This document shows, piece after piece, positions 26,467 to 56,604 of a DNA stretch of 64,000 bases. The stretch is from an uncultured Candidatus Binatia bacterium (GTDB taxonomy: Bacteria; Desulfobacterota; Binatia; HRBIN30). The stretch spans positions 82,145 to 146,144 of the forward strand of contig CAYJOD010000003.1 of NCBI GenBank assembly GCA_964371655.1, given 5' to 3'. Numbering within the stretch: position 1 is the first letter of the stretch; every line of letters begins with the position of its first letter. The notes below the pieces were generated by a model that searched no databases, was not told where the DNA came from, and saw only the letters and a list, made by a program, of their open reading frames with translations. The position numbers and the translations under genes were made by a program.

Positions 26467-26473
26467 CTCCTAT

Positions 26474-41990: not shown

Positions 41991-42039
41991 TTGGCCCGGG
42001 TGGCTTGAGTACTGCTTCCGAGCGTAGGGAGGATTGTGC

Positions 42040-43497
42040 ATGATGAAGACGCTGTTTCTCGGACCGCCATCGTTCGACGACTTCGATGGCGGAGCAGGAT
42101 CACGCTACCAGGCGCGACGCGAAGTGCGCTCGTTCTGGTATCCCACCTGGCTCGCACAGGCGGCGGCGCTGATTCCGGACAGCACTCTCATCGACGCACC
42201 ACCGCATGACCTGACGCTTGAGGACGTCACCCGGCAGGCGGCCGGGCACGACTTGATCGTCATTCACACCTCGACTCCGTCGCTCGCTTCCGACGCCAAG
42301 ACCGCGGCGCATCTCAAGCAAGCGTTCCCGCGCGCCATCGTTGGTTTCGTCGGGGCGCACACGATGATTCTTCCCGACGAGACCCTGAAAGCCGCTCCGG
42401 CAGTGGATTTCGTCAGCCTCGGCGAGTTCGACTACGTCATCAAGGAGCTCGCCGAAGGGCGCCCATTCTCGGAGGTCGCCGGCCTCGCCTATCGCGCCGA
42501 AGACGGACAGGTGCGCAAGACGGCACTGCGACCGCCGATTCACGACCTCGATGTTTTCCCCTTTGTCACCGACGTCTACGCCAAGCACTTGCAGATCGAG
42601 AAGTACTTCATCGGCTACCTGCTCCATCCGTACGTGTCGCTGTACACCGGGCGCGGCTGCCGCAGCAAATGTAGCTTCTGCCTATGGCCACAGACCATTG
42701 CCGGCCACGTCTACCGGACGCGCAGCGCCGAGCACGTGATCGCCGAGATGGCACACGCCAAGAAGTTGTTTCCGCAGGTGCGCGAGTTCTTCTTCGATGA
42801 CGACACCTTCACCGACGACCGCGTCCGCGCCGAGGAAGTCGCGCGCGGGCTCGGCAAGCTCGGCATCACCTGGTCGTGCAACGCCAAGGCCAACGTCCCC
42901 TACGAGACCCTGAAGATTCTGCGCGACAACGGCCTGCGTTTGCTGTTGGTCGGGTTCGAGACCGGCAACCAGCACATCCTCAACAATATCCGCAAAGGCA
43001 CCCGCGTCGATCGTGCCGTCGAGTTCATGAAGGATTGCCACAAGCTCGGCATCCTCGTGCACGGCACCTTCATCGTCGGGCTTCCCGGCGAGACGCTGGA
43101 GACGATTCAGACGACGATCGACTTCGCCAAGGAGATCGACCCCTACAGCTTGCAAGTGTCGCTGGCGGCGCCTTATCCCGGCACCGCGCTGTACGAGGAG
43201 GCCATTGCCAAGGGCTGGCTCACGCACGAGCGCGAGCGCGATCTGGTTCAAGACGCCGGCATTCAGGAAGCCGTGATGGCGTACGACGGATTGTCGTCGG
43301 AGCAGATCCACGACGCGCTCGAACGCTTCTACCGCGCCTACTACCTGCGACCGCGGCCGATCATCCGGATCGTGAAGGACATGCTGCGCGATCGTGAGGT
43401 CATGGTGCGACGCCTGCGCGAGGCGCGCGAATTCTTCACGTTCATGGCGCAACGACGATTGAACCACCGCACGCAGAGCCCGGCCACCGTGGCGTGA
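42040..43497 (+). CDS. hpnJ: Hopanoid biosynthesis-associated radical SAM protein HpnJ
   Basis: FDGGAGSRYQARREVRSFWYPTWLAQ; GRGCRSKCSFCLWP; FFDDDTFT. Confidence 0.93.
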   Translation: MMKTLFLGPPSFDDFDGGAGSRYQARREVRSFWYPTWLAQAAALIPDSTLIDAPPHDLTLEDVTRQAAGHDLIVIHTSTPSLASDAKTAAHLKQAFPRAIVGFVGAHTMILPDETLKAAPAVDFVSLGEFDYVIKELAEGRPFSEVAGLAYRAEDGQVRKTALRPPIHDLDVFPFVTDVYAKHLQIEKYFIGYLLHPYVSLYTGRGCRSKCSFCLWPQTIAGHVYRTRSAEHVIAEMAHAKKLFPQVREFFFDDDTFTDDRVRAEEVARGLGKLGITWSCNAKANVPYETLKILRDNGLRLLLVGFETGNQHILNNIRKGTRVDRAVEFMKDCHKLGILVHGTFIVGLPGETLETIQTTIDFAKEIDPYSLQVSLAAPYPGTALYEEAIAKGWLTHERERDLVQDAGIQEAVMAYDGLSSEQIHDALERFYRAYYLRPRPIIRIVKDMLRDREVMVRRLREAREFFTFMAQRRLNHRTQSPATVA

Positions 43498-43642: not shown

Positions 43643-43711
43643 TCATCTCTGTGCCCTCTGTGGTTCAAAATCTGCTCTCCCGGCTCAACCTGGAATCGTC
43701 GGGATCTGAAG

Positions 43712-44527
43712 ATGCTATTTGCCATCCTCGCCAGCACGCTGATGACGCTCGGCCTCTACTTGATGAAGCGCCAAGCCGAGCGCCTGCCTTCTCTTGGCGG
43801 CGGGTGGCGCATCGACGGCTGGGTCGCGTTTGCACGTGATCCGCTCTGGATCGCCGGCGTGATCCTGCAGATCGGCGGCTATGGACTCTACCTCACGGCC
43901 TTGCGCGAAACGCCCTTGTCGATCGTCCACACCGCTCTCAATGGCGGCATCGCTCTCTTCGTTGTCTTGGCGGTATTGGGTCTTGGCGAAGAGCCGCGGC
44001 CACTGGAGTGGCTCGGCGCCGCCGCCGTCGCGCTCGGATTGATGGCGTTGGGGGCGTCCTCTTTGCCCGAGACGCAGGGTGTCGGGACAGGAGTCGTGAG
44101 CACCGCTGCCTTCGCGGTGGTGACGATCGGCGCCGCACTCGCTGCGCTCACCCTCGACCCTCGTGCCGGCCGCTCGGTTGGCTTGAGCGTGGCCAGCGGG
44201 CTCATGCTCGGCCTTGCCGCGTTGTATGCGAAACAGCTCGCGGCATCCGAGTCGGTTGGCGCGGCGGTCGTCAGTCTTCCCCTCGCGCAGACACTCGGCG
44301 CCAACATGATCGGTTTCGCACTCATGCAGGGTTCGTTGCAGTCCGGCAAGGGAGTCGTCGTCGTACCCATCTTCTCAACCCTATCGAATCTGGTTCCGAT
44401 TGTTGCCGGCGTCCTCGTCTACGGAGAACCTCTGCCCACGGAGCCGGCTCAGGTCGTGCTGCGGCTTGCCGCAGTCGCACTCGCCCTCGGCGGCGCGGCG
44501 GTGCTCGGCACTGCCGGGGGGAGGTGA
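43712..44527 (+). CDS. DMT/EamA-like membrane protein
   Basis: Many hydrophobic segments; WIAG, ALRETPLSIV, LGLGE, GVLVYGE. Confidence 0.7.
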   Translation: MLFAILASTLMTLGLYLMKRQAERLPSLGGGWRIDGWVAFARDPLWIAGVILQIGGYGLYLTALRETPLSIVHTALNGGIALFVVLAVLGLGEEPRPLEWLGAAAVALGLMALGASSLPETQGVGTGVVSTAAFAVVTIGAALAALTLDPRAGRSVGLSVASGLMLGLAALYAKQLAASESVGAAVVSLPLAQTLGANMIGFALMQGSLQSGKGVVVVPIFSTLSNLVPIVAGVLVYGEPLPTEPAQVVLRLAAVALALGGAAVLGTAGGR

Positions 44528-44794
44528 CAAGAACCGGTGCTGCGCTCGCACTCGCTCGCAACTCAGTAGCCTGTTCTCTTTTCCGGGTAGTAGTGTGAAC
44601 CAGGCACTTTGCGATTTTGCGTCTTGGCGCGAGAAACGTCTGAGCTTGTCTCGCGCCAAGACGCAGAGGCGCATAGGGGAAGATGCGAGGAGCGCTATCG
44701 GGACCTCCCCTCATGCTTGTGCCCGTCTTGCGCTCGAGTCTCGCATTTGACTCGCTCGGTCTCGGTGGTAGGCTCCGCGCACGGAAGTAATGAA

Positions 44795-45400
44795 ATGGGT
44801 CTCGCCGCTGCGTTGTTCTCTGACGATCCGCTGCTCATCCACTCGACGCGTAGCCTGAAGCGGATGAGCGACCGCGAGTTCTTCGACTTCTGCCAGATCA
44901 ACAGGGATCTCCGTATCGAGCGCACGAAGACGGGGGATATTCTCATCGTGCCACCGACAGGGGGAGAAACGGGTCGGCGCAACTTCCTTCTCACCGGACT
45001 GTTCACTGCCTGGGTGGAGGCCGACGGCACCGGCGTTGGTTTTGATTCGTCGACACTCTTCACCCTTCCCAACGGCGCTAAGCGATCTCCAGATGCATCA
45101 TGGGTGAAGCGCTCGCGCTGGGAGCGGTTAACAAGCCGGCAGAAGGACGAGTTTCCGCCGCTGTGCCCTGACTTCGTGGTGGAGCTACGCTCGCCATCGG
45201 ACTCCCTGCGGACGCTGCAGGACAAGATGGAAGAGTACATGGCCAACGGCGCGCGGCTCGGATGGCTGATTGATCCCATCGAACAGCGCGTCTACGTCTA
45301 CCGCCGCCGCCGCCGGCCACAGCGTTTGGACGATCCAACCATTGTGCGTGGCGATCCCGAGCTGCCCGGCCTTGCGCTCGATGTGTCGCGGTTGTGGTGA
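44795..45400 (+). CDS. Uma2 family endonuclease
   Basis: RIER..GDI, FDSS, RSPDASW, PDFVVELRSPSD, KMEEY..NG.RLGWLIDP. Confidence 0.92.
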   Translation: MGLAAALFSDDPLLIHSTRSLKRMSDREFFDFCQINRDLRIERTKTGDILIVPPTGGETGRRNFLLTGLFTAWVEADGTGVGFDSSTLFTLPNGAKRSPDASWVKRSRWERLTSRQKDEFPPLCPDFVVELRSPSDSLRTLQDKMEEYMANGARLGWLIDPIEQRVYVYRRRRRPQRLDDPTIVRGDPELPGLALDVSRLW

Positions 45401-45453: not shown

Positions 45454-46362
45454 TCACGCCAGTTCGTCATACCTGATACACCGCACTCCGGCGCGCTCCA
45501 GCGCCTCGCGGACCCGTGGGCTCTTGAGCGCCGCTAGCTCGCCTTCACATTCGTAGCTCGGCGGACGCCAGCGTCGTGCTTCGGCGTCGACGATCGAGGC
45601 GTGGGTGTAGATCTCGGTCACGCCGGGTGGCAGTCGATCGATCAGTCCGAGCATGTAGCTCGCCGTCATGTGTCCGCTCTGGTGCAGGCCGAACACTTGG
45701 TCCGCTACACGTACGGCGCGTGCTGCAATGCGTGGCGCGGCGTAGGCAGCGAGGCCGCGGAAGGTCATCGACTCCGCCGTCTTTCGAGCTCGCTCCGTCG
45801 CATCGAGTGCCAACGAGATCGCCAACGGCTCGCGTGGCAGGCGTAGGGCGCGAATCCCATATTCCTCGGCGACATCCAACAAGATCGCCAGAACCGTAGG
45901 ATGCATGTGGATATTGAGGTGGCCATCGACATGCGACAGCGGCAGTCCGGTGCAGCGAAACTTGTCGAGCTGAGCACGGATCTCGCGCCGCAGCTGGGCG
46001 CGCAGGCCCGGCGTGAAGAAGTAACGGAAGCCGACCGCCACCGCGTTGTTGCTGAACATGCCGTCGGCGTCGACCAGACCCGGTATCTGCCGGCGCTCGC
46101 AAGCGGCCTGTCCTTGCACCAGGACCAGATGCAGCCCGACACCCAACGCCGGGTTCTGCCGCGCCAACTCGACGGCTTCTGCGAATGCCACCGCGTTCAC
46201 CATCAGACTAGCGTTGGTGAGGATGCCGTGGGTGTGGGCGTCGATGATGCCAGCATTGACACCCGGAGACAGACCGAAGTCGTCGGCGGAGATGATGACG
46301 CGGCGGTCGGCGCCTCGCGACTCAGTCGCAGATCGGGAGGATCGTACCAGCGCGGTCCGCAT
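45454..46362 (-). CDS. hpnK: Hopanoid biosynthesis-associated deacetylase HpnK (YdjC/ChbG family)
   Basis: ADDFG, GLHLVL, HVDGHLNIHMHP, TEIYTH; near hpnJ. Confidence 0.88.
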   Translation of the reverse strand: MRTALVRSSRSATESRGADRRVIISADDFGLSPGVNAGIIDAHTHGILTNASLMVNAVAFAEAVELARQNPALGVGLHLVLVQGQAACERRQIPGLVDADGMFSNNAVAVGFRYFFTPGLRAQLRREIRAQLDKFRCTGLPLSHVDGHLNIHMHPTVLAILLDVAEEYGIRALRLPREPLAISLALDATERARKTAESMTFRGLAAYAAPRIAARAVRVADQVFGLHQSGHMTASYMLGLIDRLPPGVTEIYTHASIVDAEARRWRPPSYECEGELAALKSPRVREALERAGVRCIRYDELA

Positions 46363-46376
46363 CCTTCACCAGTAGG

Positions 46377-46495
46377 GCCGGAACCGAACCGGAAGAAATG
46401 GAAAACAGGAAACCGGAAACCGGAGATGGAAAACCGGCAAATTGACCAGTGTTCGGTTTCCTGTTTCCTGTTTCCGGTTTTCCATTTCCTTCTCG
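46377..46495 (+). repeat. Heptamer hairpin element, copy 2 of 3
   Basis: gccggaaccgaaccggaagaaatggaaaacaggaaacc...ggttttccatttc. Confidence 0.85.
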
Positions 46496-46554
46496 CACTG
46501 GGCAGGACCTTCGGAAAGGTGAGGTTGCCCGCCTGTGCCGTTCATCGCTTGCGA

Positions 46555-47559
46555 CTACGCCGAGACCTCGACCCGAGCGCGCCGCCCGAGCCGCCGTCGC
46601 GACGCGATTGCCAGTCCGATCATCGCCCACGTCAGCTCGCGAATTCGCCGCAAGAGTCCGAGCGTCAATCCCTTTGCCGGATCGAGGCCGAGCAGCGTGA
46701 AGATCAGCACCTTGCCGCCCTCCTGCGTGCCGGCCTTCATGGGGACGAAGAAGAGCATGCCGTCGATCGCCACCGATAGCACCTCGACCGTGAGCGCCGT
46801 GTGCAGTGTTGCTGGCAAGCCGAGAAAGCGCAGGACCAGGTAGACCTCTACCACGCCCATGCACCACCCGGCGAAGAAGCAGGCGGCCGACAGAAGAAAC
46901 GGCGCGCTCGCTTCCACGTGCAGGCGCGCGATCTCCGCGTCTAGACGTTGCAGGCGACGCATCAGATCCGGGGCGCTCGCCGACAGCCGTAAGCGCTGCG
47001 CCAGACGCAACAGCGGCGCGAACATGCCGCGGCGCTGCCCCAGCACCAGCGCCGCGGCCAGGCAGGAAAAGATCACGAGTCCGAGGAGCACGCCGTTGCG
47101 CACCTGCGGCGGCAGCGGCGTGTCGTCGAGGATGATGGCGAGGCCGACGAGGATGAACGTCACCTGCCCGACGGTTTGGCTGACCTTGGCGACGGCGAGC
47201 GACGCAACAATCGTCGTGGAGCTGCCGAATCCACGCAATAGACGCGAGCGCACGAACTCTCCGCCAATCGTCGCCGTCGGCGTGAGGTAGTTGACCGCGT
47301 CGCCGGCGAGGCGCGCGGCGAGCAGCTGGCGAAACGGAATGGCTGGCTTCGGTGAGGTGAACGCGCACCACCAGCCGAGCGTGTTCGCCGTAATCGCGAT
47401 AGACTCCTGACCAATGATCAGAAGGATGCCCCAGCCGACCATGCGCAGATCGGTCGCGACCTCACGCACGTCGAGCTGATAGATGAGGAAGCCGAGCAGC
47501 AGGGCCCCGGCCGCCAGGAGAAGTCGCTCAACCAGTCGAAGTAGACGCGCGGGACGCAT
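46555..47559 (-). CDS. Flippase-like / lysylphosphatidylglycerol synthase TM domain protein (HpnL-like)
   Basis: RLAGDAVNYLTP...GGE, VP..AGTQEGG, RRIRE. Confidence 0.85.
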   Translation of the reverse strand: MRPARLLRLVERLLLAAGALLLGFLIYQLDVREVATDLRMVGWGILLIIGQESIAITANTLGWWCAFTSPKPAIPFRQLLAARLAGDAVNYLTPTATIGGEFVRSRLLRGFGSSTTIVASLAVAKVSQTVGQVTFILVGLAIILDDTPLPPQVRNGVLLGLVIFSCLAAALVLGQRRGMFAPLLRLAQRLRLSASAPDLMRRLQRLDAEIARLHVEASAPFLLSAACFFAGWCMGVVEVYLVLRFLGLPATLHTALTVEVLSVAIDGMLFFVPMKAGTQEGGKVLIFTLLGLDPAKGLTLGLLRRIRELTWAMIGLAIASRRRLGRRARVEVSA

Positions 47560-47583
47560 GCGAGGTGTGACTGCCCTACGACA

Positions 47584-47702
47584 GCCGGAACCGAACAGGA
47601 AGAAATGGAAAACAGGAAACCGAAAACCGGAGATGGAAAACCGGTAAATTGACCAGTTTCCTGCTTCCGGTTTCCTGTTTTCGGTTCTTCATTTTCTTTC
47701 CG
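47584..47702 (+). repeat. Heptamer hairpin element, copy 3 of 3
   Basis: gccggaaccgaacaggaagaaatggaaaacaggaaacc...ttcattttctttcc. Confidence 0.85.
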
Positions 47703-47800
47703 TGCTGTTCAAGATTGTTCCGGTAAGGGACTAACCCTCTCCCGCAAGTAATGCGGGAGAGGGGAGCTTGCCACGGTCACGTCTCTCCGCTGCATCAGGC

Positions 47801-49000
47801 TCAACGCGCGTCGCGCCACTTGTAGACCAGAATCAGCAGGATCCCAAAGCCGTAGGTGCCGAACGCCGCGCCCCACAGAAACCAATGCAGGCGATCGGCG
47901 ACGGCGAGAACGAGGAGCAGATAGGCGAAGTCGCGGTTCATCATCGCTTCCAACGACGCCAGGATGCGTTGGCGCATCTTCCCCTTCCACGTCGCCGGCG
48001 TGCCGCCACTGGTCGCGAAGTTCGGACGCTTTACGAGAAAGAAGTAGCTGAGGAAGCCGTCGAAGGCGAAGCCGCCCAACAAGATCGCAATGAGCATCAG
48101 GTAGGGGGCATCGGGGTGAGCGCGGTACAACCCAAGCGCAAGACCAACGAAGATGGCGACGTGTACGATGTTGTCGGTGATGACATCGAACTTCTGCCCG
48201 AACGATGAATCGAGAAACTTCATGCGCGCCACTTCGCCGTCGCAACCATCGATGATCGTGGCGCACAGGAAGAGCAGCGTCCCCGCGACTCCGGTCGCGT
48301 ACGAACCCACCGCCAGCAGGGCCCCCGCCAGCAGTCCGATCGACGTACCGATCGTGGTGATGTGATTGGGCCGCAAGCCGGTGTGGGCGACGATCCAGCG
48401 GCTGATGCGCAACGATACGCGGCGATCGACCCAGTGTGCCAACGGGCCGTCACTGGCCTTGCTGTCGTGGCGCATGCGCTCGCAGAACGCGCGCTCGGCC
48501 TGCTGCGCCGTGTGTGCATCGGTGACCGCGAGGCAAACGGCGCCATCCAAGTTGAGCACCTGGGCATCGAGCCCACGCACCGCGGCGAAGATGGCGGCCG
48601 TTCCCTTGGGGTCGAGATCGGTGAGATCGATGCTGGACCACGTGGTGATCCGGCAGCGCGCTGCCTGGTCGCTGTCGGCACCCACAAATAGCAGCGCCCG
48701 TCCATCCAGATTCGTCGTGGCGATCTGTTGAATCGTCGCCGGGGTCACGAACGTGTCACTGCGCACGATCGTCACTTCATCGCCTTCGAGAAGCGGGAAG
48801 TGCTCGCTGACCTCCACCGCACGGGTGCGGGCATCGCCGCGTAGCAGCTCGCGCACTTTGGCGGTGTGTTCGCGGCCGACGACCACGATGCGATCGAAGT
48901 CGGATCGCAGCACCGAGAGCACCACTCGCTGCAACAGTGGCAGGCCAGCGACTTTGTGAAAGCTCGCCTCGTTGGGGGGAAGAATCAGTGCCGTCTTCAC
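47801..49000 (-). CDS. CDP-alcohol phosphatidyltransferase with degenerate N-terminal nucleotidyltransferase-like domain
   Basis: PNHIT, DGCDGEVAR, FG..FD...D; N-terminal VAGLPLLQR. Confidence 0.88.
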   Translation of the reverse strand: MKTALILPPNEASFHKVAGLPLLQRVVLSVLRSDFDRIVVVGREHTAKVRELLRGDARTRAVEVSEHFPLLEGDEVTIVRSDTFVTPATIQQIATTNLDGRALLFVGADSDQAARCRITTWSSIDLTDLDPKGTAAIFAAVRGLDAQVLNLDGAVCLAVTDAHTAQQAERAFCERMRHDSKASDGPLAHWVDRRVSLRISRWIVAHTGLRPNHITTIGTSIGLLAGALLAVGSYATGVAGTLLFLCATIIDGCDGEVARMKFLDSSFGQKFDVITDNIVHVAIFVGLALGLYRAHPDAPYLMLIAILLGGFAFDGFLSYFFLVKRPNFATSGGTPATWKGKMRQRILASLEAMMNRDFAYLLLVLAVADRLHWFLWGAAFGTYGFGILLILVYKWRDAR

Positions 49001-50055
49001 GCGCCTGGCATGTCACCTTTCAAAGAAATCTGTTCCGGTATCGGCAGCGGTCGCGCCTCCTGCGCGCCCGAGGTGTAGGCCAGCGATAGCATCAGGACGC
49101 AGAGCTCAGCTTCGGTCCGATTGACGCGGCGCGCGTCCGGATCGTCGAGGGCGCGCCGGAACTCGGTGATCACGCCGCCGAACCAGTCTGGATGATGCGA
49201 GCCTGCCGACAGCGGACTGGCGAGTCGCCGCACCCGCTCCGGGCCCTTCCCGCGCAGAACCACGCGATCGTCGTCGATCTCCAGCTCGCCGGCATCGCCC
49301 GACAACTGCCAGCGCGTGTGCCGTTCCTCCGCCGCCCAGGTCAGACGAATCTCGCCGACCACGGACGGGAAGTCGACAGCACAGGTGACGGTATCCTCGA
49401 CCGCTGCGTCGACGTAGCGGCGTCTTTCCAAAGCGGCGCGAATCCGCTGCGGTCGCTGCTGTGCCAGCGCCAGCATCAGGTAGAACGCGTGCCAGCCATG
49501 ATCGACCAGGATGCCGCCGCCGGCCACGGCCGCATCGACGCGCCAGTTCTCGCCTGTCGCCACCGAGCAACCATTACGCGCGGTATCGAAGACGATCGAC
49601 CGCAACGATCCCAGCTGTCCTGCGGCAACGACCCGCTGCGCGAGCTGAAAGGCCTCGGAGTGCTTCCAGTTGTGAATCGTATGCAAGACGACGCCGGCGC
49701 GCTCGACGGCGCGCTTCAGCTCCAGGTAGTCGGGCAAGGACGTCGTCAGCGGCTTCTCGCACAGGACGTGCACGCCGGCTTGGGCCGCGGCGGTGATCGC
49801 CGCCGGGTGGAACACGGGCGGCGCCGCGATATCGACGAAATCGAGGCGCTCGTGCTGCAGCAGGGTCGCGACATCGGGGTACGTCCGCGCGCCGGGGACG
49901 GCGTCGGCCGCCAGCGCCCGGCGTTCAGGGTCGGGATCTACGATGGCAACGATCTGGAAATCGGAACGTGTCTTCCAACCGGGCAGATGTCCGTTCGCCG
50001 CAACGTTGCCGAATCCGATGATGGCACCGCGGCGAACGTTTGCGTCGGCGGTCAT
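48997..50055 (-). CDS. Gfo/Idh/MocA family oxidoreductase
   Basis: IIGFGNVA, CEKP, GGGILVDHGWH. Confidence 0.9.
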   Translation of the reverse strand: MTADANVRRGAIIGFGNVAANGHLPGWKTRSDFQIVAIVDPDPERRALAADAVPGARTYPDVATLLQHERLDFVDIAAPPVFHPAAITAAAQAGVHVLCEKPLTTSLPDYLELKRAVERAGVVLHTIHNWKHSEAFQLAQRVVAAGQLGSLRSIVFDTARNGCSVATGENWRVDAAVAGGGILVDHGWHAFYLMLALAQQRPQRIRAALERRRYVDAAVEDTVTCAVDFPSVVGEIRLTWAAEERHTRWQLSGDAGELEIDDDRVVLRGKGPERVRRLASPLSAGSHHPDWFGGVITEFRRALDDPDARRVNRTEAELCVLMLSLAYTSGAQEARPLPIPEQISLKGDMPGA

Positions 50056-51407
50056 TGCCGATACACACCCGAGCGCGAGATTTCACCGAATACTTCGTCG
50101 AGGATGGCGACACCGTCGCGGGCTTCGGTTTCGGTGAGGATCAGCGGTGGGTTGATACGCATACGCGAGAAGTAGCCCATCAGCAGCAGGCCGCGCCGCA
50201 ACGCTGCGAGGAAGATGCTCTCGGTGACTTGCTTGGCGAGCGGTTCCTTGGTCTTGCGGTCCTTCACCAGATCGAGGCCGATCAGCAAGCCGGAGCCGCG
50301 CACGTCGCCGATGAACTCGTACTTCTCCTGCAGCTTCTTGAGCTCATGCAGAAGCATCGCGCCGACGCGTTCGGCGTTGTCGACAAGATCCTCCGATAGA
50401 ATCGTCTCGACCGTCGTCAGCGCCGCCGTTGCCGCCAGTGGATTGCCGCCGTAGCTCGAAGAGGAGGAGCTCGGCTTCGCAAACGGCATCGCCGCCGTGA
50501 TCTCGTCGGTCGAGATCAAGCCGGTCACCGGGAAGCCGCATCCGAAGCCCTTGCCGATGGTCATCACGTCGGGGGTCGTTTGGGTATGGTCGCAACCAAA
50601 CATGGACCCCGTTCGCCCGAAGCCGGTGATCATCTCGTCGGCGATCAGCAGCGCCTCGTTCTCGTGCGCGATGTCGAGGACGCCGGGCAGGAACTCCTTC
50701 GGCGGCACGACGTTGCCGGCGGTGCCCTGCATCGGCTCGATGATGATCGCGGCGATCTGCCCGCCGGTGGTCGTCTTCAGCGACTGACGCATGAAGTCGA
50801 GGCAGAACATCCCGCAGTTCGGGTAGGTCATCTTGAACGGACAGCGATAGCAATCGGCGTAGGGCACCAGGTGGGTGCCGGTCGCGAGCGGGCCCCATTT
50901 TTGTTTCCACTCGTCGCCGATGAGACCCATGACGCCACCGGTCTTGCCGTGAAAGCCGCCCCAGAAGCCGACGACCTCGAACTTCTTGGTGTAGGCCTTG
51001 GCGAGGCGAATGGCGGCCTCGACGGCTTCCGAGCCGCCGCTGTAGAGCTGTGTTCGCTTCAACCCGCCGGGCGTCAGCTCGGCGATGAGCTTGAGCAGCT
51101 GCATGCGCGGCTCGGTCGTGAAGCTGCCCACCGCGAGTCGCTGCAATTGTTGGGTCAGGGCCGCCACGAAGCGCGGGTGCGAGTGGCCGAGACTGGCGAC
51201 GGCGACGCCGGCAAAAAAATCCAGGTATTGATTACCGTCGGCATCGGTCAAGCGGCAGCCTTTGCCCTCCACCATCGCGGCTTGCGAAAGCTGCGCGATA
51301 CGCTGGATGCCGGGTGCGAGAAACTGAGCTTCCGCCTCAATCAGGGCTCGCGATTTGGGCCCTGGAAAAGGGATCGAGGTGGACGCAGAGTTCGATGCTG
51401 TCTTCAC
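50052..51407 (-). CDS. Class III PLP aminotransferase
   Basis: YLDFFAG, SGGSEAVE, GFHGKT, EPMQG, ADEMITGFGRTG, IGKG; GTG start overlaps upstream stop. Confidence 0.92.
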   Translation of the reverse strand: MKTASNSASTSIPFPGPKSRALIEAEAQFLAPGIQRIAQLSQAAMVEGKGCRLTDADGNQYLDFFAGVAVASLGHSHPRFVAALTQQLQRLAVGSFTTEPRMQLLKLIAELTPGGLKRTQLYSGGSEAVEAAIRLAKAYTKKFEVVGFWGGFHGKTGGVMGLIGDEWKQKWGPLATGTHLVPYADCYRCPFKMTYPNCGMFCLDFMRQSLKTTTGGQIAAIIIEPMQGTAGNVVPPKEFLPGVLDIAHENEALLIADEMITGFGRTGSMFGCDHTQTTPDVMTIGKGFGCGFPVTGLISTDEITAAMPFAKPSSSSSSYGGNPLAATAALTTVETILSEDLVDNAERVGAMLLHELKKLQEKYEFIGDVRGSGLLIGLDLVKDRKTKEPLAKQVTESIFLAALRRGLLLMGYFSRMRINPPLILTETEARDGVAILDEVFGEISRSGVYRQ

Positions 51408-52225
51408 GGTGCTGCGACTTTCTCCAGGTGGGTGGCGATGGATTTGGATGCCCCAAAAAGGCAAGCAGAGTAGCTAGGCCAATCATTCAAGTCAATTAAG
51501 TTGACCTCGCCGTCGGCGCCGATGACGCAATCGCCGCCGTAGATTTCTACGCCGAGAGTGTCGGCAGCCCGGCGTCCGACCGCGTCCACCTGTCGCAAGA
51601 CATCGGCGTCGAACTGCGCTACCGCTGCCGGCTGCACACAGTGAAAGAAACCCCCGCGTACGCCGTAGAATTTGACGACGGTCCCCGGCCGGTGCTGTTG
51701 CACGACGGCTCGTTGGATGTCGCGTTCCTGGAAGCGCGCCAACGCGGCCTGCGCGGCGGCGACGTCGACGACGTAGACCACGTCATCGGCGTCGATCGCG
51801 TGCACGTCGCCGCGTTTGATCCAGGCACCGGCTTCGTCGATCCACTCGGGAAGCGGCGCCGACTCGGCCGCCGGCGAGCGAGTGTCGACGATCGCAGTAC
51901 GCGGAAAGCCGACATCGGAGCCGCTCAGCAGCAACACCGTGCGGTGGCGTTGGCAGTTGAGAATCGCCTCGGCGCAATTGACGACGCGAATCCCGTCGAT
52001 CTCCCATTCACGCAGGTGCTGCAAGGCCGATCGCCCCTGGCTCATCGTGAACACCACGGTGCCCGGCTGCGGCTGTGGCCACTCGGCCTCGGTCTCCGTA
52101 AACATGTCGATCGCGTGTCCGGCGTCGCGCAGACACGTCGCGGTCATCTCCAAGATGCGTCGATCCGCCTCCACCTTGCCCGGCGAAAAGCGTGCGTCGC
52201 GAGCGATGCCGAGAAAGCGGCTCAT
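51404..52225 (-). CDS. ATP-grasp-like protein
   Basis: RFSPG..E.D, WIKRGDVH, VKFYGV, YGGD, IDLNDWPS. Confidence 0.72.
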   Translation of the reverse strand: MSRFLGIARDARFSPGKVEADRRILEMTATCLRDAGHAIDMFTETEAEWPQPQPGTVVFTMSQGRSALQHLREWEIDGIRVVNCAEAILNCQRHRTVLLLSGSDVGFPRTAIVDTRSPAAESAPLPEWIDEAGAWIKRGDVHAIDADDVVYVVDVAAAQAALARFQERDIQRAVVQQHRPGTVVKFYGVRGGFFHCVQPAAVAQFDADVLRQVDAVGRRAADTLGVEIYGGDCVIGADGEVNLIDLNDWPSYSACLFGASKSIATHLEKVAAP

Positions 52226-52926
52226 GCGGCGAACCCGCTGCGCACGAACGCCTCGGCGGTGGCGACGTCCTCGGCGCGATCGACGTCGACTGCCTTGCCC
52301 ACCGGCTCGCCGTAGATCCGATAACCGGAGTCGACGAGATGCCCGAGAAACTGCCGCAATGCGGTGAAACGCTGCAGCGCGACTTCAGCATCGAGGAAGA
52401 TCGAGGCGTCGAAGGTGTAGAAGCCCGCGGTGATCCAACCGCTCTTGCGTGCCGCTGGTCCGAGCGCGACCACCCGGTTCTTGGCATCGAGGCGGGCCCA
52501 TAAGGGTTTTTCGTCGTCCACAAACCGGGTCACGGCGAGAACGCCGTTGGCATCCACATGCGTCGCCGCGGCTTCGAGGAAGCGCCGCAAGACATCGGGT
52601 GAGAACACCGAGTCGACGGTCAACAAGACGAAACGCTCGCCGGACAACAGCGGCGCCAGGGTGAAGAGACTTTCCATCGAGCTCGCGGTGGTGCGGCGCA
52701 CGAACTCGAAGCTCAGCTGTGGCCAGGTGCGGCGGCAGTGCTCCTCGATCCCGGCCGACTGCTCGTTCACGATACAAGCAACCTCGGCAAGTCCCGCCGC
52801 GGTGATCGCCGCCAGGGCGTAATCGATCAGGGCCCGCCCGGCGACAGGAACAAGGGGTTTCGGTTGCTCATAGCCGGCAGCGAGCAGGCGTTCGCCGTGG
52901 CCCGCCGCAATGATGGCTGCTTTCAT
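52222..52926 (-). CDS. Nucleotidyltransferase (NTP transferase) family protein
   Basis: IIAAGHGERL, PKPLV, TVD, DVDR.ED. Confidence 0.9.
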   Translation of the reverse strand: MKAAIIAAGHGERLLAAGYEQPKPLVPVAGRALIDYALAAITAAGLAEVACIVNEQSAGIEEHCRRTWPQLSFEFVRRTTASSMESLFTLAPLLSGERFVLLTVDSVFSPDVLRRFLEAAATHVDANGVLAVTRFVDDEKPLWARLDAKNRVVALGPAARKSGWITAGFYTFDASIFLDAEVALQRFTALRQFLGHLVDSGYRIYGEPVGKAVDVDRAEDVATAEAFVRSGFAA

Positions 52927-53603
52927 TCGATCATGGTCTCCAGATCAGTGAGGCGCCGCAGGCGGATGTCGACGAGCTCCGGTGCCGGGCAAGGGCGATC
53001 CGCCTCGCCCACCAACCAGGCCGAACGCAGACCTGCTCGGCGCGCACCGACGACGTCCTTCTCGAAGGAGTCGCCCACATATAAAACGTCTGCCGCGCTA
53101 CAGCCGAGGTCGTCGAGCGCCAGCCGAAAAATTCCCGGTTCGGGCTTGCTCACTCCGACGCGATTGGAATCGATAATCGTGGCCAACAGCGGCGCGATAC
53201 CGGCTTCCGCGAGGACGCGGTCGACATTGCCGTAAAAATTCGAGATCACGCCCAACGAATAATGCTCCTGCAAGCGCTCGAGAACCTCACGGCTTTGATC
53301 GAGCGCGGCCCACGCGTCGTCGAGGAAGACGGCGAGGATGTCCGCGGCGCGCTGTGGGTCACTGATCCCGAGGTGTTCGAATTGCCGTGCGACGTGGAAC
53401 TCGGCCAAGTCGCGCAGCCCCATGTCGGCCACCCGCGCGTCGGCGTAGCCGCTGCGGGTGGCATGGCCAAAGGCCGCGCGCAGGTCGTCAAATGGTACCG
53501 ACAGCCCGACCCCGGCGTACAGACGCGCGAAGCGAGGCAACCAGTGGTCCGCCGGGCCATCTAACGTTCCGCCAAAGTCAAAGCACACCGCCTCGACTTG
53601 CAT
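52923..53603 (-). CDS. HAD family hydrolase
   Basis: FDFGGTLD, ISN, KP, VGDS..KD. Confidence 0.9.
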   Translation of the reverse strand: MQVEAVCFDFGGTLDGPADHWLPRFARLYAGVGLSVPFDDLRAAFGHATRSGYADARVADMGLRDLAEFHVARQFEHLGISDPQRAADILAVFLDDAWAALDQSREVLERLQEHYSLGVISNFYGNVDRVLAEAGIAPLLATIIDSNRVGVSKPEPGIFRLALDDLGCSAADVLYVGDSFEKDVVGARRAGLRSAWLVGEADRPCPAPELVDIRLRRLTDLETMIE

Positions 53604-53682: not shown

Positions 53683-54483
53683 ATGCACGAGTTCGACGAA
53701 GACACACGCGTACAGCCGATCGGAAACGGCGCCTTTGCGGGCGAGCTCACCGAACGCTGGGGTATCGGGGAAGTCCCCAACGGGGGCTACCTGCTCGCCT
53801 TCGCGATGTCGGCGCTGCGGCAAGCGCTTCCGGATCGCGATCCGCTTTCTGTGACTGCACACTATTTGCGCCCAGGAGCCACCGGCCCGGCGCGTGTCGC
53901 CGTGGAAATCATCAAGACCGGCCGTCGTTTCTCGACGCTCATGGCTAGGCTGATCCAGAACGGCGCAGAGGTGCTGCGCGTGCTCGCCACCTACGGCGAT
54001 CTCGAGTCGGGACCAGGGCCGCGCCATATCGACGGTGCGCCGCCGCTCTTGCCGCCGCGCTTGGCGCGGCCGCCGCTACCGCCGTCGGGTGGCGTGATGA
54101 CCATCCTCGAGCGCTTCGACATTCAGTTCGATCCAGCCACCACTGCCTTCACGCGCGGCGAGCGTGCCGCTCAAGCAGCGATTCGCGGCTGGCTGCGTTT
54201 CGCCGATGGCCGCATGCCCGACGTGCACAGCATGGGGTTGATCGCCGATGCCTTCCCGCCAGCCGTGTTTCAAATCCTCGCTGCCGGATGGGTTCCAACC
54301 CTCGAGCTCACCGTCCACGTCCGCGCCCGCCCGCAGTCCGAATGGCTGGCGTGCGTCTTCCGCACCCGCTTCTTGCAGAACGGCCTGCTCGAAGAGGACG
54401 GCGAGATCTGGGACGAGAGCGGCACGCTGGTGGCGATGTCGCGGCAGCTCGCGATCCCACCGCGGCCGCTCGCGGGCGAGTAG
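53683..54483 (+). CDS. Thioesterase family protein (double hotdog)
   Basis: PNGGYL, HYLRP, DAFPP, WVPTLELTVH, EEDGEIWD. Confidence 0.88.
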   Translation: MHEFDEDTRVQPIGNGAFAGELTERWGIGEVPNGGYLLAFAMSALRQALPDRDPLSVTAHYLRPGATGPARVAVEIIKTGRRFSTLMARLIQNGAEVLRVLATYGDLESGPGPRHIDGAPPLLPPRLARPPLPPSGGVMTILERFDIQFDPATTAFTRGERAAQAAIRGWLRFADGRMPDVHSMGLIADAFPPAVFQILAAGWVPTLELTVHVRARPQSEWLACVFRTRFLQNGLLEEDGEIWDESGTLVAMSRQLAIPPRPLAGE

Positions 54484-54912: not shown

Positions 54913-56604
54913 ATGATTCATCTTGCGGAATTCTCGGCGCGGACGCGGACGAAGAACCTCGAGGCGCTGGCGCGCGAGCAGTTTGATCTGCTGGTCATCG
55001 GTGGCGGGATAACCGGCGCCGGGATCGCTCGTGACGCGGCGATGCGTGGGCTACGCGTGGCCCTGGTCGAGCGCCGCGACTTCGCGGCCGGTACGAGCAG
55101 CCGTTCCTCCAAGCTGGTTCATGGTGGCTTGCGTTATCTCGCCCAAGGGGACGTCGGGCTGGTGATGGAGGCGTCGAACGAACGCCGTGCCGTGCGCAAG
55201 CTGGCGCCGCACTTGGCAACACCGCTGCAGGTTCTCGTCCCCGTCTACAGCCGCTCGGGGTACGCCACGATCAGTGCCGGCCTGTGGACCTACGACCGCA
55301 TGGCTCGCGTCCTCAAGGAGGAGCGCAACCAGATGCTCGGGCGTGACGAGACGCTCGCGCTCGAACCCGGCTTACGCCCCGATCGCTTGTATGGCGCCGG
55401 CTTGTACTACGAGTATCTCACCGACGACGCGCGCCTGGTCATCGCCAACATTCAGACCGCCGCGGCGTTCGGTGCATCCATCGCCAACTACGCTGAAGTG
55501 GTGGCCCTGCACAGCGACGGTGGACACCTCGCGGCCGCCATCGTCCGCGATATGGAGTCCGAGGCGGAGTTCCGGGTCGGCGCCAAGATCATCGTCAATG
55601 CGGCGGGACCGTGGGTCGACGAGATTCGCATCATGCAAGGCGGCAACGAGAAACGGCGCCTGCATCTGGCGCAAGGCATCCATATTTCGATTCCCGCCGA
55701 GCGTCTGCCGATCTCGCGCATGGTCACCCTGGCGTCGCCCGACAAGCGTCCGGTATTCGCCATTCGGCGCGGGCCCCTCGTCTACATCGGCACCACCGAC
55801 ACCGAGTACGAGGGACGTTACGATGACCCGCCGATCGCGCTACGCGACGTCGAGTACTTGCTCGATGCGGCGAACCTCACCTTCAACGTCGAGCGTATCG
55901 GCGTCGACGACATCGTCGGGGCGTGGTCGGGTCTGCGCCCACTCGTGCACCAGGAAGGTAAGAAGACCTCGGAGATCTCGCGTAAAGACGAGGTCATCAT
56001 TGGCCCGACCGGACTCTTGTCGATCGCGGGTGGCAAGCTGACGACCTTCCGCAAGATGGCCGAACGTGTCACCGACCTGGTCGTCGAGCAATTGAAGGCG
56101 CGCGGTCAGACCGTCCCGGGCCGCAGGGCGGATGCGGACAACGGGCCTCTGGTCGGCGGCGATACCGGTGACAACGTCGAAGCTTTCGCCACCCGCCTCA
56201 AACAGCGCTGGCCGAAGGTTGCGGACGATATTGTCGATCACCTCGTGGAGGTCTACGGCAGCAACGGCGAGCGCATCGTTGAATCGATGGCCGGCGATCC
56301 GACCCTGGCGACGCGTTGCGCGCCGGATTCGCCGGTCACGCAGGGCGAGATCGCTTTCACCGTGCGTCTGGAGATGGCATTGACTGTCGAGGACTTTCTC
56401 GAACGTCGCGCCCGTCTGTTCCTATGGGAAGCGCACAACGGGCTTACCGTCGCCGGTGCCGTCGCGCAGCACATGGGGGCGCTACTTGGCTGGGATAGCA
56501 AGCGGGTCGCGAGCGAAGAGGCCGCCTATCGCGCCCATGTTCGTGACGTGAAGACGTTTCTCCCCGCCGCCGAGCCCGTCCCCCTGCGCGCCGCCCAAGG
56601 ATGA
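54913..56604 (+). CDS. glpD: FAD-dependent glycerol-3-phosphate dehydrogenase
   Basis: GGGITGAG, GTSSRSSKLVHGGLRYL, DDARL, GTTD, GGKLTTFR. Confidence 0.93.
   Translation: MIHLAEFSARTRTKNLEALAREQFDLLVIGGGITGAGIARDAAMRGLRVALVERRDFAAGTSSRSSKLVHGGLRYLAQGDVGLVMEASNERRAVRKLAPHLATPLQVLVPVYSRSGYATISAGLWTYDRMARVLKEERNQMLGRDETLALEPGLRPDRLYGAGLYYEYLTDDARLVIANIQTAAAFGASIANYAEVVALHSDGGHLAAAIVRDMESEAEFRVGAKIIVNAAGPWVDEIRIMQGGNEKRRLHLAQGIHISIPAERLPISRMVTLASPDKRPVFAIRRGPLVYIGTTDTEYEGRYDDPPIALRDVEYLLDAANLTFNVERIGVDDIVGAWSGLRPLVHQEGKKTSEISRKDEVIIGPTGLLSIAGGKLTTFRKMAERVTDLVVEQLKARGQTVPGRRADADNGPLVGGDTGDNVEAFATRLKQRWPKVADDIVDHLVEVYGSNGERIVESMAGDPTLATRCAPDSPVTQGEIAFTVRLEMALTVEDFLERRARLFLWEAHNGLTVAGAVAQHMGALLGWDSKRVASEEAAYRAHVRDVKTFLPAAEPVPLRAAQG

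Follow-up and report, generated by a model that had tools for sequence, protein, structure and literature searches.

The scyllo-inosamine pathways to streptidine and rhizopine use an inositol-phosphate phosphatase, a Gfo/Idh/MocA-type inositol dehydrogenase, an aminotransferase and an inosamine kinase, in that order. Their products are soluble, and we know of no nucleotidyl activation or membrane transfer afterwards. DIPPS also makes a soluble solute. The HpnI-HpnK-HpnJ route of hopanoid producers, to bacteriohopanetetrol glucosamine and cyclitol ether, gives a membrane lipid whose cyclitol head group bears an amine; this head group derives from N-acetylglucosamine and is ether-linked. Canonical hpn clusters contain an HpnL protein as well, without an assigned role.

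The putative "alternative" inositol-lipid cluster of Bacteroides vulgatus and Prevotella, of unconfirmed function, places an NTP transferase, a CDP-alcohol transferase and a HAD hydrolase by the inositol-phosphate synthase (MIPS) gene. An LPG-synthase homologue lies nearby, and a CDP-inositol (Kennedy-type) route has been proposed; the organisms carrying this type of cluster link it to inositol lipids (Heaver et al. 2022, PMC9246714). An earlier note on the DNA studied here had likened its gene set to this cluster, and the paper describes the cluster in the same terms.

The window analysed here is a 64,000-nucleotide stretch from an uncultured Candidatus Binatia soil bacterium. Open reading frames, Pfam and NCBIfam bear out the gene content that the earlier note had read from it, namely six linked genes, a flippase-like gene and hpnK, all eight on the minus strand and at the positions given. 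The features are as follows.

52923..53603, minus strand: HAD-IA family phosphatase, first of the six, ATG start (PF00702 63.9 bits, PF13419 60.2 bits)
52222..52926, minus strand: sugar/alcohol-phosphate nucleotidyltransferase (PF12804 48 bits, PF00483 44 bits)
51404..52225, minus strand: ATP-grasp protein, labelled AGL (fold from a structure model and structure matches)
50052..51407, minus strand: class III (omega-type) aminotransferase (PF00202 328 bits)
48997..50055, minus strand: Gfo/Idh/MocA NAD(P) dehydrogenase (PF01408 84 bits, PF22725)
47801..49000, minus strand: CDP-alcohol phosphotransferase (PF01066 40.6 bits)
47584..47714, no strand: palindromic dispersed repeat, copy 1, between the transferase gene and the HpnL-like gene
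46555..47559, minus strand: HpnL-like LPG_synthase_TM (MprF-flippase-type) membrane protein (PF03706 99.8 bits)
46377..46507, no strand: palindromic repeat, copy 2, in the gap ahead of hpnK
45454..46362, minus strand: HpnK, YdjC-type deacetylase (TIGR03473 344 bits, cut-off 232.6; PF04794 260.6 bits)
44609..45400: Uma2 gene, between hpnK and hpnJ
43712..44527, plus strand: EamA/DMT-type membrane protein (weak PF00892, 23.3 bits, cut-off 28.2)
42034..43497, plus strand: HpnJ, B12-binding radical SAM enzyme (TIGR03471 745.5 bits, cut-off 577.6)

All five junctions in the six-gene block are 4-nt overlaps (ATGA three times, including the HAD/nucleotidyltransferase junction, and GTGA twice), and we read the six genes as one operon, that of a probable modular lipid head-group pathway. 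The aminotransferase has a GTG start that overlaps the AGL stop. Gaps of 241 nt (transferase gene to HpnL-like gene) and 192 nt (HpnL-like gene to hpnK) follow, each holding a copy of a palindromic repeat found at about 126 sites genome-wide. The flippase-like gene and hpnK lie on the same strand as the block, as the earlier note had it, but hpnK does not meet hpnJ directly, since the EamA-type and Uma2 genes intervene.

The likeness to the Bacteroidota cluster lies in the NTP-transferase-domain protein, the CDP-alcohol phosphatidyltransferase, the HAD hydrolase and the LPG-synthase homologue. A Bacteroidales locus (L048), in the order NTP-TetR-AGL-CDP transferase-LPG_synthase_TM-HAD-MIPS, also has a homologue of the window's ATP-grasp gene (37% identity), and it is of the published putative inositol-lipid cluster type. 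As described, the published cluster is carried by gut Bacteroidota, adjoins MIPS and is without a class III aminotransferase or a Gfo/Idh/MocA dehydrogenase. The window, in contrast, has this amination pair within the operon and hpnK and hpnJ as neighbours. No ino1 lies in the window, as had been noted; this genome carries its MIPS on another contig (C66).

AGL, of an unnamed family, is the signature gene of the cassette, and its relatives occur in 517 species genomes. We counted 71 loci with room upstream of AGL, 65 with room downstream and 49 wide loci (20 from Verrucomicrobiota, 29 from elsewhere). The nucleotidyltransferase gene is directly upstream of AGL in 69 of the 71 and a HAD gene upstream in 66. 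In 61 of the 65 the aminotransferase comes directly 3' of AGL, and in 59 the dehydrogenase comes right after it as well. The amination pair is thus kept with the lipid genes, a point on which the earlier note had staked its reading; in L032 and L040 AGL occurs with the NTP transferase, HAD and CDP transferase and without the pair. This five-gene core is conserved in at least seven phylum-level groups, with loci in Binatia, Verrucomicrobiota, Myxococcota, Acidobacteriota, Elusimicrobiota, Desulfobacterota and Methylomirabilota. The same gene order, repeated in dozens of genomes across several phyla, puts the arrangement far beyond chance. Comparison shows that a DIPPS/AF2299-type CDP-alcohol phosphotransferase accompanies the core (45 of the 49 wide loci have some CDP-alcohol transferase no more than 10 kb away), as does an MprF-flippase-like membrane protein outside Verrucomicrobiota (25 of the 29 wide loci there have a homologue of the HpnL-like protein next to the cassette). 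In Verrucomicrobiota the cassette stands in a ceramide-type locus: an Spt-like gene adjoins it in 20/20 wide loci, joined in many by a KDS-reductase-like SDR, a GNAT, a sphingolipid-desaturase-domain gene and a fatty-acid hydroxylase. The window's own genome yielded no Spt, desaturase or GNAT homologues of this type. We found no published description of the cassette, which is widespread and undescribed.

AGL matched no Pfam family at E≤0.01. Its ATP-grasp fold is confirmed by a structure model (pLDDT 90.7) together with structure matches, the best among those listed being RimK (Z 21.6), ArgX/LysX (Z 20.6) and Ddl (Z 19.8). Among these matches the fold is closest to ligases, and ITPK1 is not among the best 50 structure matches listed. 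ITPK1 is the best PDB sequence match of the AGL profile (E 0.033), across a Mg/ATP motif, GGDCV..LIDLNDWPSY. This weak motif match and pathway logic are the basis for a putative kinase step; AGL may be a kinase or a ligase.

The HAD protein has generic HAD-IA matches in NCBIfam, none above an equivalog cut-off, and we propose it as an inositol-phosphate or product phosphatase. The translated nucleotidyltransferase has a GxGxR-type N-terminus (AAGHGERL) and weak NCBIfam matches, among them IPCT/DIPPS (47.2 bits); its proposed role is that of a CTP:(amino)inositol-phosphate cytidylyltransferase. The CDP-alcohol phosphotransferase has, in translation, the complete D-x2-D-G-x2-A-R-x8-G-x3-D-x3-D motif, shared with the IPCT/DIPPS of hyperthermophiles (4MND) and AF2299 of Archaeoglobus fulgidus (4O6M), its best solved matches (44.2 and 68.7 bits). 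The three also share an N-terminal cytoplasmic cytidylyltransferase-like domain, but in the window's protein this is degenerate, without GxGxR, and among homologues it varies in length and in one is missing. Its NCBIfam matches, none of which reaches the cut-off, are to IPCT/DIPPS (69 bits), archaetidylinositol-phosphate (AIP) synthase (49 bits) and PIP synthase (43.5 bits). As judged from its sequence, the enzyme belongs to the inositol-phosphate-using branch of DIPPS, AIP synthase, PIP synthase and AF2299.

The aminotransferase is the best-conserved cassette gene (53-56% identity to the Verrucomicrobiota copies, where its neighbours reach 36-44%). Its nearest solved relatives are GABA/ornithine-type transaminases (7vno, 256 bits). 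The usual substrates of class III transaminases are aldehydes or omega-amines, and the known inosose aminotransferases are, to our knowledge, of another family. We propose that it converts a keto-inositol to an amino-inositol. The dehydrogenase, with inositol, inositol-phosphate or CDP-inositol as proposed substrate, has inositol 2-dehydrogenase IolG as top NCBIfam match and an aldose-aldose oxidoreductase as best solved relative. No cassette gene reaches an inositol-enzyme equivalog cut-off (IolG, 73.3 against 355 bits; IPCT/DIPPS, 69 against 580 bits), and that inositol itself is aminated is what we infer. The logic proposed is that of the scyllo-inosamine pathways, which differ from the cassette in aminotransferase family and in kinase fold.

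The HpnL-like protein scores 172.1 bits with TIGR03476, under the 195.65 cut-off, and is the only copy found in its genome (tblastn with that protein). It shares the Pfam family LPG_synthase_TM with the MprF flippase domain, but is without the aminoacyl-transferase domain (its 19.4 bits on bifunctional MprF, where the cut-off is 600, are negligible). Like lysyl-phosphatidylglycerol, its proposed substrate would be a lipid with a free head-group amine.

MIPS was above cut-off in 50/50 carrier genomes, compared with 9/200 in a Verrucomicrobiota sample; in Myxococcota the co-occurrence is uninformative because MIPS is common there anyway (126/200). MIPS adjoins the cassette in L048, L062 and L086 and leads the operon in G040. 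Hopanoid genes were also enriched among carriers (above cut-off, shc 36/50, HpnH 38/50, HpnJ 27/50). Tallying locus, shc, HpnJ and HpnH results, at least one marker occurs in 44/50 carriers, against a shc background of about 3.5-5% (7/200 Myxococcota, 9/200 Verrucomicrobiota, 8/150 Elusimicrobiota); carriers within one phylum are probably kin, so this enrichment counts lineages rather than independent events. The hopanoid link suggested by the earlier note is therefore real, and the cassette is confined almost wholly to hopanoid-making bacteria. All shc-positive carriers have HpnH and so make extended hopanoids. HpnJ was absent in 13/13 Verrucomicrobiota and 2/2 Elusimicrobiota carriers, so the cassette does not need HpnJ and HpnK. 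Of 15 wide Binatia-like loci, 12 have HpnK next to the cassette. An EamA gene accompanies hpnJ in Binatia, and the order HpnK/EamA/HpnJ recurs in L010, L013, L016, L027, L031, L053 and L058. The window's HpnJ is the only copy above cut-off in its genome.

We think it rather probable that the cassette makes a CDP-activated, probably aminated inositol phosphate, whose head group lineage-specific transferases attach to a membrane lipid. A possible but lesser reading is an ordinary non-hopanoid lipid, an amino-inositol glycerophospholipid or sphingolipid, with hpnK and hpnJ mere neighbours and the hopanoid tie only physiological (lipids cooperating in one membrane) or due to shared ancestry or habitat. 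It fits the 20/20 wide Verrucomicrobiota loci set among ceramide-type rather than hpn genes, the one Bacteroidales genome tested (that of L048), which has none of shc, HpnH and HpnJ, and the position of the own genome's HpnI on another contig. In the three genomes with shc and cassette on one long sequence (G004, G024 and G036), shc is far away, and in G036 HpnH is 17 kb off with housekeeping genes between. It fits less well with hopanoid genes in 39/39 genomes that have AGL, aminotransferase and dehydrogenase in a row, against the 3.5-5% background, or with the cassettes of Binatia, Myxococcota and Desulfobacterota that contain or adjoin HpnJ and/or HpnK. In G040 (Desulfobacterota) the cassette is embedded in a hopanoid cluster on one contig, with HpnH and an HpnN-like transporter on one side and HpnJ, HpnK, an HpnI-like gene and shc on the other.

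That G040 cluster holds a further class III aminotransferase, PigE/ArgD-like, which makes a better candidate for HpnO. It argues against an unlikely reading in which dehydrogenase, aminotransferase and ATP-grasp enzyme act not on inositol but on the hopanoid side chain or its glucosamine/cyclitol head group (for instance by aminating ribosylhopane in an HpnO-like way or N-acylating the cyclitol amine) and polyol phosphate is handled by NTP transferase, CDP-alcohol transferase and HAD only. L032 and L040, with AGL and no amination pair, also tell against it, as do AGL by MIPS in the hopanoid-free Bacteroidales genome and the same five-gene order by ceramide-type genes in Verrucomicrobiota. In its favour are the ligase-like fold, the dehydrogenase's aldose-aldose relative and the extended hopanoids of shc-positive carriers; HpnO, too, is a class III aminotransferase, and the ribosylhopane to bacteriohopanetetrol reductase is described as not established (PMC12583986). 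A soluble product, namely a compatible solute of the di-myo-inositol-phosphate (DIP) type, possibly aminated, is very unlikely. Hyperthermophiles make DIP with a cytidylyltransferase, a DIPPS-like membrane enzyme and a phosphatase. The transferase's best named match is IPCT/DIPPS, and the separate nucleotidyltransferase and phosphatase complete the exact DIP enzyme set, giving the phosphatase a natural role on DIP-phosphate. Yet all scores fall far under the equivalog cut-off, and the transferase keeps company with lipid genes, not solute genes: the MprF-flippase-like protein outside Verrucomicrobiota and the ceramide-type genes within. Going by record titles, most carriers are metagenome genomes from soil, peat and groundwater rather than hyperthermophiles, and the related type of cluster in Bacteroidota is linked with inositol lipids in its carriers (PMC9246714).

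Each testable part of the earlier note's reading of the cassette as an amino-polyol lipid pathway held. In the amino-inositol lipid pathway that we favour, all chemistry is assigned from family membership. The genome's inositol-phosphate synthase would supply myo-inositol phosphate (step 1), which dehydrogenase and aminotransferase would turn into an amino-inositol (inosamine-type) phosphate (step 2); in the simplest, six-step route, HAD would free inositol first and the ATP-grasp enzyme would re-phosphorylate the product. The nucleotidyltransferase would make the CDP-activated form (step 3), the membrane transferase would couple the phospho-head group to a lipid alcohol (step 4), and the HpnL-like protein would move the amine-bearing lipid across the membrane (step 5). 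Unlike the HpnI-HpnK-HpnJ route, of which the window has HpnK and HpnJ over curated cut-offs, the cassette relies on activation by a nucleotide and on a phosphotransferase, and whatever link it makes would therefore be a phosphodiester; it also occurs without HpnJ. The core would supply the donor, and the choice of acceptor would lie with lineage-specific transferases: ceramide, probably, for Verrucomicrobiota and Bacteroidota. The Binatia genome, in which ceramide genes were not found, would use diacylglycerol or a hopanoid polyol as acceptor. The pathway would depend on hopanoid producers, and in this genome it lies beside hpnK and hpnJ.

The six cassette genes occupy the minus strand from 53603 to 47801, HAD first, as read from open reading frames, Pfam and NCBIfam. 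At each of the five junctions the stop and start codons overlap by 4 nt (ATGA three times, GTGA twice), so the genes form one translationally coupled operon. The earlier note had reported six genes joined in this way, and all six, with their five overlaps, were verified. It had also placed a flippase-like gene and hpnK on the same strand, converging on hpnJ. The shared strand was confirmed, but hpnK does not converge directly on hpnJ, as an EamA-type gene and a Uma2 gene intervene. The features of the operon and its flank are as follows.

Minus strand, HAD-IA hydrolase
Minus strand, nucleotidyltransferase (NTP transferase) with an intact GxGxR-type N-terminus
Minus strand, ATP-grasp protein of 273 residues, without any Pfam family
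Minus strand, class III aminotransferase
Minus strand, Gfo/Idh/MocA dehydrogenase
Minus strand, CDP-alcohol phosphotransferase of 399 residues
Minus strand, LPG_synthase_TM membrane protein (flippase-like), after a 241-nt gap from the six-gene block
Minus strand, hpnK, after a 192-nt gap from the LPG_synthase_TM gene
42034-43497, plus strand, hpnJ, with the EamA-type gene and then the Uma2 gene downstream
40953-41072, 43522-43652, 46377-46507 and 47584-47714, copies of a palindromic repeat

HpnJ scores 745.5 bits on TIGR03471 (equivalog cut-off 577.6) and HpnK 344 bits on TIGR03473 (cut-off 232.6), which bears out the names first given to both. The flippase-like protein reaches 172.1 bits on the HpnL model TIGR03476, under its cut-off of 195.65. 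Homologues of it that are linked to cassettes score 101.8-133.6 bits; one of these comes from a Bacteroidales genome lacking hopanoid genes. A scan of the operon for sigma-70 promoters and terminators found none above shuffled expectation.

Several further features surround the operon. The palindromic intergenic repeat is about 110-130 nt long and consists of 14-nt GGAAAACCGGAAAC-like units. The four copies in the window sit around hpnJ, hpnK and the HpnL-like gene, one of them in each of the 241- and 192-nt gaps; genome-wide, blastn locates the repeat at about 126 sites spread over 72 contigs. It looks REP- or MITE-like and is possibly a signal for transcription or mRNA stability between operon parts. 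The Uma2-family gene (putative restriction endonuclease; 44609-45400, plus strand) lies between the EamA gene and hpnK. Related Binatia loci lack it here and read HpnK / EamA / HpnJ, and copies 49-50% identical to it occur on two other contigs. A mobile insertion is its probable origin. An acyl-CoA thioesterase (53683-54483, plus strand) and a GlpD-type glycerol-3-phosphate dehydrogenase (54913-56604, plus strand) lie upstream of the operon in divergent orientation. GlpD was considered as a pathway member in a serinol-type route and set aside. Of the 15 wide Binatia-like loci (those with 6 kb or more to either side), 9 have it beside the cassette and no locus elsewhere does; its adjacency was therefore treated as synteny. 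Farther out are a second Gfo/Idh/MocA dehydrogenase 8 kb from the operon (61537-62559, minus strand; 124 bits on IolG against 73 for the operon's enzyme, cut-off 355), a HAD-IB phosphatase fused to 1-acylglycerol-3-phosphate acyltransferase (12676-14274, plus strand), and a PhnW/PhnX pair for 2-aminoethylphosphonate breakdown adjoining an organophosphate MFS transporter (24527-28278).

We then asked how far the arrangement is conserved. The ATP-grasp family has 360 members at E<=0.001 in a clustered protein collection, and tblastn confirmed relatives in 517 species-level genomes, mostly of uncultured bacteria. Locus counts come from the best 80 loci, drawn from these 517 genomes. Where the contig leaves room, the ATP-grasp gene is preceded by a nucleotidyltransferase in 69 of 71 loci and by a HAD gene in 66 of 71, and followed by an aminotransferase in 61 of 65. 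The earlier proposal depended on the aminotransferase and dehydrogenase being kept with the lipid genes, and the two follow in that order in 59 of the 65 loci; in two of the remaining six the dehydrogenase lies upstream. These counts mark the five-gene core, the cassette minus its CDP-alcohol phosphotransferase, as a unit. The loci come from Binatia, Verrucomicrobiota (Chthoniobacterales), Myxococcota, Acidobacteriota, Elusimicrobiota, Desulfobacterota, Methylomirabilota and others, groups assigned by hand from genome labels and synteny. Some CDP-alcohol phosphotransferase is present in 45 of 49 wide loci. Because transferase and membrane protein differ in type and position between loci, gene order suggests a donor-making module served by lineage-specific transferases.

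Several features of the cassette point to inositol. The phosphotransferase matches PF01066 at 40.6 bits (gathering threshold 22) and has the motif D-x2-D-G-x2-A-R-x8-G-x3-D-x3-D, read as DGCDGEVARMKFLDSSFGQKFDVITD. Its matches all fall in the inositol-phosphate-using branch and stay under cut-off: 69 bits for IPCT/DIPPS, 49 for archaetidylinositol-phosphate synthase and 43.5 for PIP synthase. The IPCT/DIPPS match (NF041135, 69 vs 580 bits) covers the linker and first transmembrane part only. Among solved structures the phosphotransferase is closest to AF2299 (68.7 bits) and IPCT-DIPPS (44.2 bits). At its N-terminus the sequence is ILPPNEASFHKVAGLP, with no GxGxR-type motif; all 15 aligned homologues having this domain lack the motif too. 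The domain varies in length, is missing in one homologue and, judged by sequence, is a degenerate cytidylyltransferase-like domain; the intact motif sits in the separate NTP gene. The dehydrogenase has IolG (TIGR04380) as its best named match, at 73.3 bits against an equivalog cut-off of 355, a match generic to the Gfo/Idh/MocA family. Inositol-phosphate synthase (MIPS, encoded by ino1) is adjacent in the related loci L048, L062 and L086, among them two Thermoanaerobaculia loci with the full cassette, and in the Desulfobacterota genome G040 its gene immediately precedes HAD, in the same orientation. It is over cut-off in all 50 carrier genomes tested, compared with 9 of 200 sampled Verrucomicrobiota and 126 of 200 sampled Myxococcota, so the enrichment is informative only against the Verrucomicrobiota sample.

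The ATP-grasp protein belongs to no named family. Pfam gave nothing at E<=0.01, and at E<=10 the 26 members searched drew scattered weak matches (TCAD7 in 7, ATPgrasp_ST in 6, Ins134_P3_kin in 2). In a protein atlas the matches were confined to "hypothetical protein" clusters, in one of which 16% of members bear the name RimK. An alignment-based model (pLDDT 90.7, pTM 0.86) predicts a three-domain ATP-grasp fold. Foldseek and a second structure aligner both rank ligases first, namely RimK (Z 21.6, rmsd 3.0 over 254 residues), ArgX/LysX (Z 20.6) and D-Ala-D-Ala ligase (Ddl; Z 19.8). ITPK1 is not among the 50 structure-aligner matches listed. The RimK/LysX ligase model TIGR00768 scores 18.6 bits over residues 57-133 only, under its cut-off of 143.4. 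With a 26-member profile, the best PDB sequence matches are ITPK1-type inositol phosphate kinases, weakly (E 0.033), over the C-terminal Mg/ATP motif (GGDCV..LIDLNDWPSY vs GIDII..VIDINAFPGY); LysX follows, also weakly (E 0.074), over the N-terminal part. The window's protein has no match to PF05770, the ITPK1-type family, and 2 of 26 members match it weakly (best E 0.19). The enzyme may be either a kinase or a ligase. The gene accompanies NTP, HAD and CDP transferase genes in two loci without the aminotransferase/dehydrogenase pair (L032, L040), and it occurs in a Bacteroidales inositol cluster. Pathway logic favours a function independent of the amine.

The cassette was compared with known systems. 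The window's Pfam families agree with the published description of the alternative inositol-lipid cluster of Bacteroidota (Heaver 2022), but that cluster has MIPS in its vicinity and the window has none. The Bacteroidales locus L048, ordered NTP-TetR-ATP-grasp-CDP transferase-LPG_synthase_TM-HAD-MIPS, is such a cluster. It carries an ATP-grasp homologue, and the resemblance drawn in the earlier note held up when the neighborhoods were compared. In the available text of Heaver et al. (PMC9246714) this cluster is proposed but unconfirmed. Upstream of it, L048 also holds two GNATs, a HisC-like class I/II aminotransferase, a CDP-alcohol transferase, an NTP transferase and a LysE-type exporter (2688-8574), which may be a separate route to an amino-alcohol phosphate head group. 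In its way of working the cassette resembles the DIP pathway and the CDP-inositol pathway proposed for Bacteroidota. It differs from them in that its proteins stay under the equivalog scores, its transferase has no active fused cytidylyltransferase, and MIPS does not adjoin it in the window. The kind of pathway is CDP-alcohol head-group synthesis.

The surroundings point to a membrane lipid as the product. An MprF-flippase-like gene is found in 25 of 29 wide loci outside Verrucomicrobiota. Within Verrucomicrobiota, an Spt-like gene adjoins the cassette in all 20 wide loci, and many loci add a KDS-reductase-like SDR, a 381-residue GNAT, a second NTP/CDP-transferase pair, a fatty-acid hydroxylase and a gene with a sphingolipid-desaturase domain. 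This setting is probably a ceramide locus by its gene content, graded no higher because the Spt (319 vs 500 bits) and reductase (169 vs 400) matches are under curated cut-offs. The Verrucomicrobiota locus L047 and 19 other wide loci share an SDR, an NTP transferase, a CDP transferase (402 aa), a GNAT (381 aa), a second CDP transferase (335 aa), the five-gene core, the hydroxylase, the Spt-like gene and the desaturase-domain gene. Such loci are probably ceramide and head-group super-loci of Chthoniobacterales-type genomes with shc and hpnH. The Binatia genome has no homologues of the Verrucomicrobiota-type desaturase and GNAT genes, and its best Spt-like match is a BioF/Kbl-type gene, 39% identical.

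The names borne by homologues suggest that the source belongs to Candidatus Binatia. By its gene inventory, this Binatia genome is that of a hopanoid producer. Contig C51 groups shc, hpnC/D, hpnE and hpnH, and HpnI is solitary on C27 (411.5 bits, cut-off 310). The earlier remark that ino1 is absent from the window was upheld: the sole copy is on C66, amid unrelated genes. The cassette and the HpnL-like gene are each single copy.

On sequence grounds, we favour, with some reserve, the reading that the core makes a CDP-activated, amine-bearing inositol-phosphate head group for a membrane lipid. MIPS would supply inositol phosphate, and the dehydrogenase and aminotransferase would convert one ring hydroxyl to an amine. 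Amination could take place on free inositol after the HAD phosphatase, with the ATP-grasp enzyme re-phosphorylating; the order of the streptidine pathway resembles such dephosphorylation, amination and re-phosphorylation. It could also take place on the phosphate or on the CDP-bound form. The nucleotidyltransferase would then make the CDP-alcohol, a DIPPS/AF2299-type enzyme would join the phosphodiester to a membrane alcohol, and the HpnL-like protein would translocate the amine-bearing lipid. MprF, which translocates lysyl-phosphatidylglycerol, is a model for this last step. Ceramide is the probable acceptor in Verrucomicrobiota and Bacteroidota; for the Binatia genome the candidates would be diacylglycerol and a hopanoid polyol.

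Carriers of the cassette show a tie to hopanoids. The 50 carrier genomes are mostly incomplete metagenome bins. Of these, 36 have shc over cut-off and two more have it split between contigs; HpnH is present in 38 and HpnJ in 27. A tally over the marker searches finds at least one of the three in 44. All 39 carriers with ATP-grasp, aminotransferase and dehydrogenase in a row have at least one marker, and the six marker-free genomes all have a deviating arrangement (L048, L075, L076, L082, L033, L037). Random samples contained no further carriers (0 of 200 Myxococcota, 0 of 200 Verrucomicrobiota), so carriers were compared with background rates and not in a two-by-two table within one phylum. 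shc is over cut-off in 13 of 13 Verrucomicrobiota carriers (background 9/200), 4 of 8 Myxococcota-labelled carriers (5 with a split gene; 7/200) and 1 of 2 Elusimicrobiota carriers (2 with a split gene; 8/150). HpnJ and/or HpnK lie in or beside the cassette in Binatia and in four Desulfobacterota loci, and likewise, together with an HpnI-like gene, in two Myxococcales loci. In G040 one contig reads HpnH, IspH, a PigE/ArgD-like aminotransferase, CDP transferase, two radical SAM genes, an HpnN-like transporter, dehydrogenase, aminotransferase, ATP-grasp, NTP, HAD, MIPS, HpnJ, HpnK, an HpnI-like gene and shc.

This association raises the possibility that the product is itself covalently bound to a hopanoid, which we consider unlikely. 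Close kinship of carriers within a phylum is probable, so the hopanoid counts are not independent. HpnJ is absent from 13 of 13 Verrucomicrobiota and 2 of 2 Elusimicrobiota carriers. shc is far from the cassette in three carriers (G004, G024, G036), and in G036 HpnH is 17 kb off, with housekeeping genes between. The specific form, a phosphodiester-linked composite of bacteriohopanepolyol and an amino-inositol phosphate head group, is likewise a tentative proposal. A route via a CDP-activated intermediate on either partner would be possible, and the flipping of amine-bearing hopanoid head groups would fall to the HpnL family.

Other observations concern the hopanoid genes themselves. The second class III aminotransferase of G040, the PigE/ArgD-like one, lies beside the CDP transferase (L100, contig C22, 3784-8389) and is possibly HpnO, the hopanoid aminotransferase, for which no specific model exists according to the available text of a bioRxiv hopanoid preprint. 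The cassette aminotransferase was judged unlikely to be HpnO, since the G040 hopanoid cluster holds this different enzyme. The same locus encodes a B12-binding radical SAM protein that scores best on TIGR04072 (lipid biosynthesis B12-binding/radical SAM; 101.5 bits, under cut-off). Long frames around HpnJ (1583 aa in G050, 947 aa in G025) were considered as possible fusions and set aside, as these regions are 74% G+C, a composition at which long frames arise by chance. The window's HpnJ is 79-81% identical to that of Binatia-like loci with more distant cassette genes but only 51-52% identical to that of the loci with the closest cassette genes and the same synteny. This pattern, from a comparison between L010, L013 and L016 on one side and L027, L031, L053 and L058 on the other, suggests that HpnJ has two lineages or was replaced by transfer. 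In several carrier genomes two copies of HpnJ exceed the cut-off.

Hopanoids count among the major membrane lipids of bacteria and serve as geological biomarkers. Our literature search, over the text it could reach, found no description of the amination pair, the ATP-grasp family or the confinement to hopanoid producers. It found no paper linking hopanoids with CDP-alcohol transferases in the cassette sense, none joining bacteriohopanepolyol with inositol and composite, and nothing relevant for inosamine and membrane lipid. Recent hopanoid surveys (bioRxiv preprint, PMC12583986) make no mention of inositol in their searched text, and one none of CDP-alcohol. In the portions available, several hopanoid-cluster genes, including HpnL, are described as without known role (bioRxiv preprint, PMC12583986), and bacterial inositol lipids are considered rare (PMC9246714).

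The cassette would extend the bacterial lipid repertoire by an amine-bearing inositol-phosphate head group. It links inositol metabolism to hopanoid producers, places a conserved ATP-grasp family of unknown function in a pathway, and is a defined six-gene set open to expression and assay. If the acceptor is a hopanoid, the product would be a new compound class for environmental lipidomics. If the composite hopanoid exists, it would be a lipid class without prior report, would give HpnL its first role, and would account for the restriction of the cassette to hopanoid producers across at least six phylum-level groups.
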